In this document: in pieces, positions 52,155-57,982 of the stretch
Position numbering within the stretch: position 1 is the first letter of the stretch
How the letters are laid out: the number at the start of each line of letters is the position of its first letter
Source: Dictyostelium discoideum
Taxonomy: Eukaryota
Direction of reading: 5' to 3'
Assembly (NCBI GenBank): GCA_000004695.1
Contig: CM000151.3
Coordinates: forward strand, 6,720,001 to 6,784,000
Length of the DNA: 64,000 nt
The notes under the pieces: model-generated
What the model saw: the letters and a program-made list of their open reading frames with translations, nothing else
Told to the model about the DNA's origin: nothing
Databases searched by the model: none
Program-made: the position numbers and the translations under genes

Positions 52155-55100
52155 TTAAATAAAAGCAAAACCATCTACATATTCTAACATTTTAATTAAT
52201 TTCTTTTTAGTAGTATCAAAATCATTATAATCAGGTAAATCCAATTGATAACTACAAGTATGAGCACAAGGTAATTTTTGACTTAATGGTACTTGAATGA
52301 TTGAAATTGATTTTTCAAAACCAGATAGTGGTAATGCAACCATTCCAGTGACGAATCTTAGGAATAAACGAATTTCATCTTGATTCATTTCATCAACTGC
52401 TCTACGAAAATCTTTTGGAGTTGAAGAAGTGTCAGGGAAACCAATGAATTTGAAATTCTTTTGTAAAACACTTGAATCCACCAAAGTATTACCACACATT
52501 AATAATTGTAATTCAGTTGGAGAGAAAAGTGCAAAATGGGCATTTAAACTATCGATTGACATGAAACCAGATTTAAATGCTTCCAATTTCGATTGTCTAC
52601 AACCTACTAAAACTCTTTCAATATTTCTTTGAATGAATTCCTCTTTATTTAAATCTGTAACTGGTATTGATTCACCACCTTCAATTAAACCTTCAAATGT
52701 TGTTGATAAATATTCTTCAATATTATCCAATACTAAAACCTTTTTAAATGATTGTGCTAATTGTGGATCATAAATTTCTAAATCTCTTAAATTTACTTTA
52801 ACTCCTAATAAATATTTAAAAAATGATGTTGGAAAACAATCTGGTATTGGTTTACCATCAATAATTGATTTTAAAAATATTTTACCTAAAATTTTAAAAA
52901 TTGTAAATTCATTTTTTAAAATTAATAATGGATTTTCTTCATTATTATTATTATTATTATTATTATTATTATTATTATTATTATTATTATTATTATTATT
53001 ATTATTATTATTATTATTATTATTATTATTATTATTATTTTCTTCATTATTATTGTTATTATTATTAAATAAATCATTTGAATTTAATAAATAAAATGGT
53101 GATTCTGTTCCACTATTTTCAAACAAATTGAATTTTTTTGAAAATAAACTATTTTTTGGAATTGAATAAGAAACACTATTATTTGAATTATTTGAATTAT
53201 CAATAATTTGATTATCACTAAATAATAATGAATACATTTCAGATGATAAACCACCTAAATCTAAACCTTTTTCACCTTGAAAAGAAACTTCTAATCTGCA
53301 AAATAATTTATTTGATTCAATTTTTTTAAAAAAGAATTGAAAGAAATCTAGTACTAAATGTTCACGACGTACAGTTAATTGAAGTGATTCACTCATTTCT
53401 TCTGCCATCTCTGATAATGATGATATATGAGCTCTAAATGCAGCAATCTTTTCTCTACAATCAATTAATGTTCTTGATGATAATAAATCCTCTACCAATG
53501 AAGTTACAAAGTATGGATGAACTGCAATTTGATGAGCAGTTGGTCTAAGTTTTGGATTTCTTTGAAATATTGATGATAATAATGATATTAATCTTTGATC
53601 TGAATGATTTGCTGGTAATGGTAAATTATTTTCTTCTGGTAATAAAAATGGTTCTCTTATTATTAAAAAATTATTATTATTATTATTATCATTTTCATTA
53701 CCATCACTATTATTATTTTTACCATTATTACCATTATTATTATTATTAACAAATTGAAAAATACATTTATATAACATAACACCAAATGCCCAAATATCAG
53801 TTGAATAACTACCCTTAACATTTTGTTCTTTCATTTCAGGTGCTTTATATAATTCAGTACCACCATTAATATTGAAAACTGTAACATTAACATTTGCAGA
53901 GATATCTTTACTTAAATCAAAATCAGAGATTACTGGTGTACCATCTTGTCTAATTAAAACATTTTCCAATTTTAAATCTCTATGAATAATACAATTTGAA
54001 TGCATATAAGCAATAGCTTGAATGATTTGTTGAAATATTTTTTGAATTTCCCAAGGTTGTCGTCTTTTATTATTTTCATTATCATTATTATTATTTCTAC
54101 ACCAATCTAATAGATTACCACCAGAAATATACTCCATTTGCATAAATGCATTTCTATCATAGAATACAGCTTGAATTGGCATAATACATTTATGATTCAT
54201 TTGTTTCAATAATGATACTTGTCTCTCGAAAATTTGTTTACCAAATGCATCACCAATTCCAAATTCTTTCAATACAACTAATTGATCATTAAAATTTGCC
54301 AAATAAACATTATGTGGATGTGTTGATAAAGTTTTAATAATATCATAATGTTGAAATTTTCTATCGGTTACTAATAATCCTGTATCTTTAATTCTTGATG
54401 AAATTTTATCATTTGCTCTTAATTTAATTTTAAATTCTGGTACATATTTATCTAATATTTCAATAATTAATTCATTTATTTCTTGTTGATTACTTAATAA
54501 TTTCTGTTCATCTTTTTTTAATTTAATTAATTCATTTTTTAATTTTTCAATATTATTATTATTATTATTATTATTACTACTATCATTTATACTATTACTA
54601 TTTATATTATTATCTATATTATTATTATTATTATTATTATTATTATTATTATTATTATTATTATTATTATTATTATTATTATTATTACTATTATTATTTA
54701 CACTATTATTTTCATGATTATTATCATCATCATCACATAAATTTTGATCATAATCTAATTCTATAACTTCAATTTTTTTACTTAATTCAATACTATTTCT
54801 TTTACAAAATCTATAATCAGATTTTAATTTCTCTCTTTGTTCTAATAAAGATTGAGCCAATTTTGATTTATTTAAAAAATCTTGAACCTCTACTAATTTA
54901 CCACGATGAATATTAATTAAATCATCACACTGTTGTAATTGTTGTGAAAGTAATGAATGATATTTAATTGCATATTTTTGAGTTTCTAATACAATTAATT
55001 GAATTTCTTCCATTGATAATCTTAATGATTCTCCAAAATTTTTATTAATAATTCCACTACTATTTGTTGTATTTGCTGTTGTCGTTGTTGCTGTTGCTGT

Positions 55101-57982
55101 TGCTGTTGTTGATGATGCAGTTGCTGTTGTTAAAGGTTGGACCATTGTAGTAGAATCCATAATATTATTACAAAAATTACCTAATCCTTGATTTAATCTT
55201 TCAACTAAATAAAAACTTTGTTGTTGAATTTCAATTGCTGTTAATGTTCCATTCTTTATTTCGCTATCTTCTTCTTCTTCATCTTGTTCCTCTTCTAATT
55301 CTGTTTCTGATTTCTCTCGTTGTTGTTGTTTTTCATCCTGATGAACTAAAACTTTTTTATTTATTAAATTTGTTGTTGTTGTTGTTGTTGTTGTTGTTGT
55401 TGCTGTGGTTGTAGTTGTTGTATTTGAAGTTGTAGTTGTAGTTATAGTTGATAAATTTAATAATTTTGATAAATTTAAAAAAGTTAAATCTTTTTGTTGT
55501 TTAATTTCTAACCAATAATCAATTGAAGTTTGATATTCTGATACTAATCCTAAACCAAGTTGATTTCTTGATAAAACCAATCTATCGATTTCAGATTGAA
55601 TATTATCAGGTAATGGTGAAAGTGATAAATTTGAATTTACCAATAATTTCAATTGTCTATTTATATCATCGAAATCTTTATTCTTCTTTTCAATTGAAAG
55701 TCCTAAATTTGGTAAACTACTAGTTGCTTTCATTTGAATTAAATTTAATAATCCTTTTGATTTTGAAATTAATGTCATCCATTCAATAAAATTACTTTGT
55801 GTACTATTTAATAAATCTTTACCTTCATTTGCTAATGATAAAAATGATGGTGTTGGTGATGATGGTCTTGTTATTATTGTTGTTGTTGTTGATTTTATAT
55901 TATTATTTGTTTGTTTTATTATTGTCGTTGTTGAACTATTATCAATTATTGATTTATTAAAATTACTATCACTACTACTATTAACACTTGATGGTAATGA
56001 TAATTCTGTTTGTTGTTGTGATTGAGTTGATGATGGTAATTGTAATTCTGTTTTAATAATTGGTTCTTTAAATCTTTTTTCAACAATTATTGTAATAATT
56101 TCACCACACGTAAATAATAATGGTTTTGAATCTTTTGAATTTATAAAACATTTCTTTGGTGTTAATTGATTTTCATCACTTTTAAAACCTAATCTTTGAC
56201 CAGCATTACATCCCCAAGAATATAATGAGCCATCAATAGACATTGCTACATTATGTTGAAAACCACTCGAAACATCTATAAACTTTACATTATCAACAAC
56301 AACGCTATTGCTATTAATTAATACTGGTAAATTCCTATCACCTTGAACATCAATCGATGTACCAAGTACACCATAATCACTTCTACCCCATGCATATGTA
56401 TCATTATTATCTGATATTGCAATTGAATGATAACCACCTGCTGAAACTTTAATAATATTAATTGGTTGTTGTTGTTGTTGTTGAGATGTTTGAAACCATT
56501 GAATTTGTTTTGGTATAGTTTGTTGATTTGAAAAGCAACCAATACCTAATTGACCTTGATCATTTCTACCAAATGAAAAAACTAAACCTTTATTTGTTAA
56601 TACCAATGAATGACCACCACCACTTGACATATCAATAATGAAATGACCTTGTAATGATTGAACTAATTTTGGTGTTGATTGCATTAACAATGATTGTTCA
56701 CCTAATCCTAATCTACCATGATCACCTCTACCAAATGTAAATAATAAACCTTTATCTGTAATCACTGCCGATCTATTCGTACCGCATGATAATTTAACAA
56801 TTTTAATTTTATTATTATTACTACTACTATTTTGAGATAATGAAAATTGTTGTTGTGCACCGTCATTATTATTATTATTATTATTATTAGTACTATTGTT
56901 ATTGTTGTTATTATTATTATTATTATAACTAATATTAAAATTAATTAATTGTGGTAGTGAATAATATGATGATGATGAACCATTACCTAAACCTAATTGA
57001 CAACTATCATTACCACCCCAACTATAAACTTTACCACAAATTGTTAATGCTAATGAATGTTTACCACCATTTGCAATGGATACAACTCTTAATGATGGTT
57101 TTGTTTGAAAGAATTCAACCAATTTAGGTGAACTATATGATTCAAGATTACCATGACCTAATTTACCCAATAAACCATCTCCAAATGTATAAAGATTACC
57201 TTGATCCGTTATGAATGAACTATGAATTGCTCCCGTTGATATCAATACAATCTTTTGTTGATTATACATCTCTGAAAATCCTATACTACTCATATTACAA
57301 TTTTTATAATTTCTAATACCATTACCCCATATTGTTATATAATCTATTATCAAAATAATAATTAATAATTAATTAATAATTAATAATAATAATAATAATA
57401 ATAATAATAATAATAATAATAATAATAATAATAATAATAATAATAATAATAATAATAATAATAATAATAATAATAATAATAATAATAATAATAATAATAA
57501 TACATACGATCGCTTTCTAATTCATCTTTATCTTCATGACCAAGTTTCGGAATTAATGAAGTATCGAAATTAGTTTCATCCTCTTCTTCCTCAATCTTTT
57601 TTTTATTTATTATAGTATTATTATCGTCATTATTAATTTCTTCATTATTTTTATATATTGATGCACTTTCTCTTATACTTTTAAAATTATTTTCTTTTGT
57701 ATTATTATTATTATTATTATTATTATTATTGTTATTGTTATTATTATTATTAAAGTTATAATTATCGGTATTATCATAAACATATTTATATGTATAATTT
57801 TTATAATCATTATATGGGAAATTGGTTGTTGATGGAGTTTTTGTTAAGGTTGGTGTTGAATTATTACCTCCATTATTACTGTTATTGCCTCCATTATTAC
57901 TGTTATTGAATAAATTAACTTGTGGCGTATGATTTAATGTTTCTTCAATCTTACTCTTTATTGACTTGAAGAATAATGACAT
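52155..57982 (-). CDS. RCC1-repeat / protein-kinase / HECT-domain E3 ubiquitin ligase; 2 exons on the minus strand (57982..57508, approx. 57343..52155), ~1887 aa
   Basis: Exon 1 (MSLFFKSIKSK...DELESD) ends at a C|GTATGT phase-1 donor. The intron is mostly (TTA)n. An AATAG acceptor joins 'AT TAT ATA ACA ATA TGG' in the frame of the 1732-aa ORF, whose track 'M' is TTG, not ATG. RCC1 blades (YTFGDGLLGKLGHG, YSWGGNDSCQLGLG, YAWGRSDYGVLG, YSWGCNAGQRLG). Kinase core (VVLKEF..HRDLKLENVL..SDFDLS..APE). HECT C-lobe with catalytic Cys 'LPCAHTCSYQLDLPDY...'. Confidence 0.7.
57385..57500. repeat. (TAA)n microsatellite forming most of the intron of the HECT gene
   Basis: Direct reading. Confidence 0.8.

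Follow-up and report, generated by a model that had tools for sequence, protein, structure and literature searches.

Within a 64,000-nucleotide window of the Dictyostelium discoideum genome (contig CM000151.3, positions 6,720,001 to 6,784,000 of assembly GCA_000004695.1; coordinates below are those of this window), a minus-strand gene at 52155..57982 encodes an 1887-residue protein that combines an RCC1-like propeller, a protein kinase domain and a C-terminal HECT ubiquitin ligase domain. Here we show that this gene, catalogued as DDB0219986, belongs to a family of kinase-HECT proteins that includes TKUL (HECT12) of Leishmania; this membership is the new result. The best explanation for the combined evidence, to which we assign a probability of about 0.75, is that the product would be an RCC1-targeted, kinase-gated HECT ligase built on a TKUL-like cassette.

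All three domains are encoded, on the minus strand like every feature of the gene described here, in one stop-free frame of 1732 codons (52155..57353). In a scan of this frame by itself, the Pfam profiles scored far above their cutoffs: WD40_RLD at 2.2e-68 and RCC1 at 8.1e-61 in six stretches for the propeller; Pkinase at 5.6e-41 (141 bits, with a gathering cutoff of 31.7; residues 1025-1282 of the open reading frame, ORF); and HECT at 1.5e-54 (186 bits, cutoff 23.9; ORF residues 1453-1731). An earlier reading of the bare DNA letters (hereafter, the sequence-only reading) had proposed a spliced minus-strand model of 1887 residues with RCC1, kinase and HECT regions on one polypeptide. This proposal is correct in its coordinates, with the frame, the splice signals and the homologous site in D. 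purpureum all in agreement, and the profile search detected each of the three domains above threshold.

The G+C content across the window is about 0.2-0.3, and the coding regions are rich in poly-Asn, poly-Gln and poly-Thr tracts. Exon 1 (57508..57982, with the ATG at 57982-57980) encodes residues 1-158, a low-complexity, Asn-rich segment, and the first base of the His159 codon; exon 2 (52155..57343) encodes residues 159-1887, including all three domains, and the stop codon (52155-52157). The intron between them (57344..57507; 164 nt, GTATGT...AG, phase 1) is about 98% A+T and consists of nearly pure (TAT/ATT)n, with the donor C/GTATGT at 57508/57507 and the acceptor ATAATAG extending to 57344. 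Splicing of 57982..57508 to 57343..52155 keeps the frame and yields 1887 residues with a single terminal stop, and the intron alters the N-terminus only. Exon 2 has its first ATG only downstream of the first propeller strand, HYITIWGNG, a segment kept in the orthologues, so that exon 1 is needed for initiation. If the intron were retained, exon 1 would gain a poly-tyrosine tail of about 40 residues, followed by a stop. In D. purpureum, the homologous site can accommodate a 69-nt intron (GTATGT...TAG) that has the same phase, splits the His codon as C/AT, and leaves an open frame of 1739 residues reading HFIKIWGSG. The deposited D. purpureum model, DICPUDRAFT_153832 (GL871115.1, 3464-3596), has a 129-nt intron with a later acceptor, which deletes the first propeller strand; by this comparison, the public model is probably mis-spliced.

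It could be argued that the gene model is a prediction artefact, such that exon 1 forms a small gene of its own or the RCC1, kinase and HECT regions are made as separate products. The model was built here from sequence and not from transcripts; the unspliced frame of exon 1 is in itself a 200-codon ORF (57380..57982) that starts with ATG, enters the (TAT)n tract and ends in poly-Tyr; and automatic models of this gene differ or are truncated, both in another D. discoideum strain (protein P0128, 588 residues) and in D. purpureum. However, the RCC1, kinase and HECT regions share not only a stop-free frame but a single exon, so that no splicing decision can separate them onto different transcripts; the HYITIWGNG strand requires the exon 1 start; and the site and phase of the intron, along with the C/AT split of the His codon, are reproducible in D. 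purpureum. Furthermore, the N-terminal peptide MS(L)FFKSIK.KIEET is common to the orthologues from D. purpureum, Tieghemostelium lacteum and Acytostelium subglobosum, and the curated dictyBase model of 2006 is identical. An artefact of this kind is thus exceedingly improbable; a gene-fusion artefact was rejected given that the domains share one ORF. The two-exon D. discoideum gene for an 1887-residue protein is real.

The first 399 residues of DDB0219986, from Table S2 of Goldberg et al. 2006 (PMC1420674), are identical to those of the spliced protein, including the junction (...ELESD/HYITIWGNG). The kinase starts at residue 1158 (YDIIKT) both here and in Figure S1 of that paper, and the VVLK, HRDLKLEN and DFD motifs agree between the two proteins. 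This sequence match identifies the locus as DDB0219986 of D. discoideum. The same study classified DDB0219986 as a 'CAMKL-unique' kinase, a label that predates knowledge of the kinase-HECT family, stated that it 'lacks G52 and E91', and gave it the rating 'partial kd', its activity being qualified ('aq'); among the icons in the legend of Figure S3, which depicts the domain architectures of kinases, are those for RCC1 and HECT (PMC1420674). Given the match, the gene and its RCC1-kinase-HECT architecture have been on record since 2006 and are not new. In UniProtKB, the protein is named bifunctional kinase/NEDD4-like E3 ligase (quoted in PMC9138534). The gene is not named among the five Dictyostelium HECT ligases in the text and supplement of the Pergolizzi 2017 review, and Grau-Bové 2013 mentions kinase domains only for HECT proteins of Naegleria and Ectocarpus, not of Dictyostelium. 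The exact 1887-residue sequence had no match in a collection of 15 billion proteins, although the proteins of D. discoideum AX4 are expected there.

The closest characterized relative is the Leishmania protein TKUL/HECT12. BLASTP against L. mexicana HECT12 produced two alignments, one running from the pre-kinase extension through the kinase domain and the linker into the HECT domain (3e-40) and the other covering the remainder of the HECT domain (8e-36). The two proteins are colinear over about 650 residues of this cassette, with 27-34% identity, and share a 'Gly-rich' loop devoid of glycine, the K(D/G)(T/S)GL pre-kinase extension, the HPYF..S end of the kinase domain, a linker of about 70 residues, and the HECT motif LP..H.C..QLDLPDY. 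In the Dictyostelium protein, the linker comprises 68 residues (1441-1508; 53295..53498; SLVEDLLSSRTLIDCREKIAAFRAHISSL...), many of them invariant among dictyostelids, and is colinear with those of Leishmania and other kinase-HECT members. The two proteins also differ: the N-terminal module of the Leishmania protein consists of TPR repeats, whereas that of the Dictyostelium protein is the RCC1 propeller; Leishmania has the alphaC Glu, DFG and HGD where Dictyostelium has Gln, DFD and HRD; and the Dictyostelium protein contains large poly-N/T inserts. In a search of the PDB, the kinase domain best matched 9gmp_A (2.9e-26, compared to about 1e-19 for AMPK, NEK1, CHK2 and MARK), which is labelled 'Uncharacterized protein (Map kinase kinase-like protein)'. 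The molecule name and length of the 9gmp chain are those of a UniRef entry (P0287; L. mexicana, 285 residues) that clusters with the Leishmania 'MAP kinase kinase-like protein / ubiquitin-protein ligase HECT12' (LmjF.35.4000); because of this agreement in name, length and cluster, 9gmp is treated here as the kinase domain of HECT12.

To delineate the family, we searched with both the full-length protein and its kinase-HECT half. In the full-length search, the combination of RCC1, Pkinase and HECT was found in four proteins only, those from D. purpureum, T. lacteum and A. subglobosum and one EukProt protein, and every other match covered the RCC1 part alone; the kinase-HECT halves of these dictyostelid orthologues are 62-76% identical. 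An exhaustive HMMER search with the kinase-HECT half returned 168 cluster representatives (50% identity) at E<=1e-30, and the best 150 of these were scanned with hidden Markov models (HMMs) derived from the five sequences of dictyostelid type. Dictyostelid orthologues not counted, at least 83 of the best 150 have a kinase ahead of a HECT domain at the C-terminus; these 83 representatives have the same domain order and a similar linker length, and the RCC1 and middle-region HMMs matched none of them. Members include the kinetoplastid protein HECT12 of Leishmania (LmjF.35.4000 / LmxM.34.4000), which, as in related metagenomic proteins, starts with TPR repeats; the heteroloboseans Naegleria gruberi and Pharyngomonas kirbyi, with no N-terminal module detected in the latter; Anaeramoeba ignava, with N-terminal LRR and filamin repeats; Soliformovum irregulare (Amoebozoa, Variosea), with N-terminal ankyrin repeats; Paraphysomonas (Chrysophyceae); and the green alga Cymbomonas tetramitiformis. 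Because the N-terminal module varies (TPR, ankyrin, LRR with filamin, or none), TPR marks the kinetoplastid subgroup and not the cassette, and Pfam detected no TPR in the Dictyostelium protein, unlike in Leishmania TKUL. When six sequences of the cassette were aligned, they were colinear throughout, at 32-35% identity, with LP..H.C invariant. Judging from these searches, the kinase-linker-HECT cassette is not rare among protists, and the RCC1 addition is restricted to dictyostelids. The sequence-only reading, which had regarded a kinase embedded in an RCC1-HECT protein as a rare architecture, accordingly stands for the lineage-specific RCC1 addition but not for the pairing of kinase and HECT.

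The dictyostelid kinase HMM gave up to 210 bits (median 104) with kinase-HECT proteins, up to 101 bits with kinase-only proteins, and 66-91 bits with PKA, Snf1, Lkb1 and MARK. Together with the match to 9gmp_A, these values support a specific relationship of the kinase to TKUL, the separation being moderate and based on a comparison of scores rather than a tree. No animal, fungal or land-plant protein was present among the named best matches to the cassette. Two other searches were less informative. A word-indexed search with the kinase domain alone returned seven weak metagenomic kinases and missed even orthologues with 60-75% identity, so its negatives are to be read with caution; and the matches to a profile of the six-sequence alignment were dominated by dual-kinase RSK/MSK proteins and are uninformative on taxonomy.

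The presence of an RCC1-like domain (RLD) together with HECT raises the question of whether the protein is a HERC. The WD40_RLD and HECT matches reported above correspond to the HERC architecture: human HERC1-6 also have an RCC1-like propeller N-terminal to a C-terminal HECT domain, and the Dictyostelium RLD is 25-30% identical to those of HERC2 and HERC3. The HERCs, however, have no kinase. The sequence-only reading compared the protein with HERC-type proteins and pointed to the embedded kinase; a candidate origin along these lines is a true HERC, with RLD and HECT joined by descent, which later captured a kinase. In favor of such an origin, the RLD-HECT combination defines HERCs by architecture, and HERC2 and HERC3 are among the full-length query matches, but those matches span only 15-20% of the query, namely the RLD. 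The dictyostelid HECT HMM assigned 144-232 bits to the best-conserved kinase-HECT proteins, all devoid of an RLD (177 for Leishmania), compared to 81-88 bits for HERC3-type proteins and 20 bits for HERC2. Divergent kinase-HECT members (Naegleria, Soliformovum, Cymbomonas) scored as low as HERCs with this HMM, so that the HECT comparison relies on the better-conserved members. In addition, the kinase-linker-HECT region is colinear with proteins that have TPR, ankyrin or LRR repeats in place of the RLD, and RLDs have been gained repeatedly by HECT proteins, with 'HERC-like' proteins described in protists (PMC3673628). By descent, then, the protein is probably not a HERC, as far as a comparison of scores rather than a tree can tell, and capture of a kinase by a true HERC appears very unlikely; this candidate was not favored, given the higher HECT scores with kinase-HECT proteins. 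Since the HECT domain is closer to those of kinase-HECT proteins than to those of HERCs, the RLD was probably gained independently, and the simplest history would be the addition of an RCC1 propeller to a kinase-HECT cassette on the way to the dictyostelids.

Fusions of a kinase with a ubiquitin ligase have evolved in other forms. Arabidopsis KEG combines RING, kinase, ankyrin and HERC2-like repeats in one chain. Mammalian MEKK1 joins a kinase to a PHD/RING-like E3 in one polypeptide, as cited in PMC5666861. Both resemble the Dictyostelium protein in carrying kinase and ligase in one chain, but as ligases they have RING/PHD-type domains, which serve as E2 scaffolds and have no HECT catalytic cysteine; these domains are not homologous to the kinase-HECT cassette, and the domain order differs.

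The kinase domain (residues ~1153-1440; 53499..54362) is atypical and TKUL-like. Its motifs were placed by alignment with PKA and with Dictyostelium Snf1, Lkb1 and MARK-B. The beta3 Lys of VVLK (residues 1181-1184; 54267..54278), K1184, corresponds to K72 of PKA, in agreement with Table S2 of Goldberg et al. (PMC1420674). The catalytic loop HRDLKLEN (residues 1279-1286; 53961..53984) contains D1281 and N1286, and in SDFDLS (53910..53927) the tripeptide DFD (residues 1299-1301) replaces DFG, with the Mg-binding Asp kept. APE is located at residues 1326-1328, and GT..YKAPE, DIW and the equivalents of D220 and R280 are present. All four motifs listed in the sequence-only reading (VVLK, HRDLKLEN, DFD and APE) were thus recovered, and the alignment places the catalytic residues K1184, D1281 and D1299 as expected. 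The same reading was right that a GxGxxG loop is absent, but the segment it took for the loop, FGIGDAFG (residues 1186-1193), follows VVLK and belongs to the beta3-alphaC loop; the actual Gly-loop position is LSTHPHNV (residues 1164-1171; 54306..54329), which contains no glycine at all. It also overlooked that, in the alphaC motif FERQV (54216..54230), Gln1200 occupies the position of PKA Glu91. Compared to the canonical Hanks set, the K/D/D triad is therefore kept, whereas the loop glycines, Glu91 and the DFG glycine are absent. Across the five dictyostelid sequences, the loop position reads [SA]THPH[NS], with T-H-P-H invariant, and K1184, HRDLKLEN, DFD, APE, DIW and the R280 equivalent are invariant, as is the HTC motif of the HECT domain.

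Most of these deviations recur throughout the family. In PKA numbering, we compared 43 full-length kinase domains of kinase-HECT proteins with 13 kinase-only matches. Glycine is present at position 52 in 5 of the 43 and at position 55 in 2, compared to 13 and 10, respectively, of the 13 kinase-only domains. The third DFG residue is Asp in 17, Gly in 17 and Glu in 6 kinase-HECT domains, and Gly in all kinase-only ones, and the HRD arginine, universal in the latter, is represented by Arg in 18, Cys in 7, Gly in 6, Ala in 4 and Lys in 4 of the former. The catalytic residues are better preserved: K72 in 41/43 (13/13 in kinase-only matches), D166 in 36/43 (13/13), N171 in 37/43 (12/13), and D184 in 38/43 (13/13). 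At E91, Glu is found in 35 and Gln in 6 of the kinase-HECT domains, and Glu in all 13 kinase-only ones. In these alignments, the glycine-less loop and DFD or DFE are traits common across the kinase-HECT family, and replacement of E91 by Gln is essentially limited to dictyostelids, making it the peculiarity of this group. Neither of the two shared features, the glycine-less loop and DFD, conflicts with the activity that has been reported for TKUL.

The main alternative is that the domain is a pseudokinase, which would keep the fold, and perhaps nucleotide binding, without phosphotransfer, and serve as a regulatory or substrate-docking module within a single-activity E3. The absence of all three Gly-loop glycines, the replacement of the alphaC Glu with Gln in every dictyostelid orthologue, the change of DFG to DFD, and the 'partial kd' rating with qualified activity (PMC1420674) are consistent with this possibility; D166 is missing from 7 and N171 from 6 of the 43 family domains, so that loss of catalysis does occur among kinase-HECT proteins. 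On the other side, K1184, D1281, N1286, D1299, APE, the equivalents of D220 and R280, and the P+1 loop GT..Y.APE do not vary among the five dictyostelid sequences, which come from four species of different genera and a EukProt protein. Gly-loop glycines are likewise missing from the Leishmania homologue, which is nevertheless reported to autophosphorylate, and DFD or DFE occurs in 23 of the 43 family members alongside intact catalytic residues. On balance, we consider a pseudokinase unlikely, although to be taken seriously.

The HECT domain (residues 1509-1887; 52158..53294), identified by Pfam, PDB and Foldseek matches, comprises an N-lobe that begins with LEVSFQGEKGLDLGG and a C-lobe. The predicted catalytic cysteine, Cys1855 (codon 52254..52256, in AHTCSYQLDLPDY), is located in AHTCSYQLDLP, 32 residues before the C-terminus, and aligns with the cysteine of SHTCFNQLNLP in TOM1, as the earlier assignment of a HECT C-lobe with a catalytic Cys near the C-terminus had anticipated. 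This cysteine is invariant in the six-sequence core alignment and conserved in at least 90% of a 51-sequence alignment, and the Phe at position -4 from the C-terminus is present (..GFAFI). As judged by these features, the HECT domain is complete. Sequence matches in the PDB were headed by TOM1 (1.6e-34), followed by E6AP, WWP2, HUWE1 and NEDD4, with the similarity to TOM1/HUWE1, E6AP, WWP2 and NEDD4 being about equal; the Pfam scan detected no C2 or WW domain, and thus the C2-WW-HECT architecture of NEDD4 is not present. The database name 'NEDD4-like' reflects general HECT similarity only. The N-lobe contains a poly-Asn insert of 33 residues (1594-1626; 52941..53039), which was modelled with low confidence. 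In the protein of the other D. discoideum strain (P0128; KAM9966213.1), this insert is far shorter, with a few substitutions elsewhere, so the insert is a length-variable loop; the automatic gene model of that protein is truncated and begins at a Met inside the kinase domain.

AlphaFold2 modelling of the kinase-HECT half with the 51-sequence alignment reached a mean predicted local distance difference test score (pLDDT) of 84.4 and a predicted template modelling score (pTM) of 0.66, with low confidence confined to the poly-N inserts. In the kinase domain, most 10-residue blocks had pLDDT above 90, with the exception of an acidic/N-rich insert, the activation segment and a poly-N insert; with the five dictyostelid sequences only, pLDDT was 33 and the model was unusable. 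Foldseek matched the modelled HECT domain to the structures of WWP2, Rsp5 and ITCH with target template modelling scores of about 0.8, so the predicted HECT fold is canonical.

Taken together with what is reported for TKUL, these features suggest how a kinase-gated ligase could work. The propeller would recruit a partner or substrate or localize the enzyme, judging from the general roles of RLDs; the kinase, by homology with TKUL, would autophosphorylate the protein and perhaps phosphorylate substrates; autophosphorylation would license the HECT ligase activity, again by analogy with TKUL; and ubiquitin would pass from an E2 to Cys1855 and then to the substrate, such that phosphorylation and ubiquitination would be coupled within one enzyme. 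In a preprint (bioRxiv 10.64898/2026.05.08.723729), both TKUL activities are reported to be important for amastigotes, and the ligase activity is reported to require autophosphorylation. A coupling of phosphorylation and ubiquitin ligation in one polypeptide had been put forward in the sequence-only reading, and this idea is supported, by analogy, by what is reported for TKUL/HECT12. In a separate study, delta-hect12 parasites lost fitness at promastigote time points and in axenic amastigote culture (Burge et al. 2020, PMC7647121).

Several considerations weigh against a kinase-gated ligase. The kinase and ligase functions in Dictyostelium are predicted from homology, and the statement on TKUL activity is a secondary citation (10.64898/2026.05.08.723729). 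The dictyostelid kinase is more degenerate than that of Leishmania, with its glycine-less loop, Gln in place of Glu91 and DFD, and because of this additional degeneracy it may be weak or inactive, in line with the 2006 rating of 'partial kd' and 'aq' (PMC1420674). The only measure of how the kinase and HECT domains are arranged relative to each other is the pTM of 0.66.

The RCC1-like domain itself (residues ~160-590; 56049..57341) was delimited by Pfam and a motif scan. The scan found seven [WF]G-x-[GNSD] blade motifs, at residues 164, 212, 267, 362, 416, 477 and 535. These point to a complete propeller of seven blades, with blades 3 and 4 separated by a poly-N/Q insert. The middle region between propeller and kinase (residues ~591-1150; 54369..56048) contains poly-T/poly-N tracts, had no Pfam match, and is moderately conserved, only among dictyostelids, at 28-52% identity. 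Its HMM matched only the four dictyostelid orthologues, and its conserved motifs include ESLRLSME, CKRNSIE.SKKIEVLELD and LKKDEQ.L; this low-complexity spacer is probably helical.

On one side of the gene, a retroelement ORF1-like gene (MNSYADAAKMANPSTHMDEASENF...) occurs twice in opposite orientations, at 47313-48566 on the plus strand and 49215-50224 on the minus strand, with a run of N between the copies that marks an assembly gap at about 48.66-48.84 kb, and an ORF with a Cys/His motif at 50783-51247. The ORF1-like region is bracketed by tRNA-Phe(GAA) genes at 46972-47045 (plus) and 51686-51759 (minus), and the G+C content of 46972-51759 is 0.32-0.40; this interval looks like a tRNA-gene-targeted (TRE-type) retrotransposon cluster. 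Within it, about 22 copies of a 13-bp unit (ATTGAAAAAAGGA) occupy 51250-51541, giving rise to a spurious repetitive ORF of 82 residues and adjoining a tRNA-Pro(TGG) predicted by ARAGORN at 51543-51613. On the other side, a 324-residue ORF on the plus strand (59306-60280), WD40-repeat-like in appearance and containing poly-G and poly-T tracts, is divergent from the kinase-HECT gene and separated from it by a spacer of about 1.3 kb rich in A/T homopolymers; this ORF is possibly a single exon within a longer gene.

The detection of the kinase-HECT cassette in Amoebozoa, Discoba, Anaeramoebae, stramenopiles and green algae leads us to propose, tentatively, that it is an ancient eukaryotic signalling unit, in which an autophosphorylation-switched HECT ligase would be combined with targeting modules swapped between lineages, the dictyostelid version having a propeller and a non-canonical kinase with Glu91 changed to Gln and DFD. 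If so, dictyostelids alone would be known to have a propeller in this position, which might connect cues from small GTPases, chromatin or membranes with phospho-gated ubiquitination, and Dictyostelium would offer a tractable model of enzymes whose class is under study as a virulence factor in Leishmania. The absence of the cassette from the named animal and fungal matches is relevant to drug targeting in kinetoplastids. Family membership links an uncharacterized gene of a model organism to TKUL/HECT12, which is reported to need its own kinase for ligase activity, and through this link Dictyostelium could serve as a genetically easy system to address how a fused kinase gates a HECT ligase, how a kinase operates without Gly-loop glycines and the alphaC Glu, and what a swappable N-terminal module contributes.

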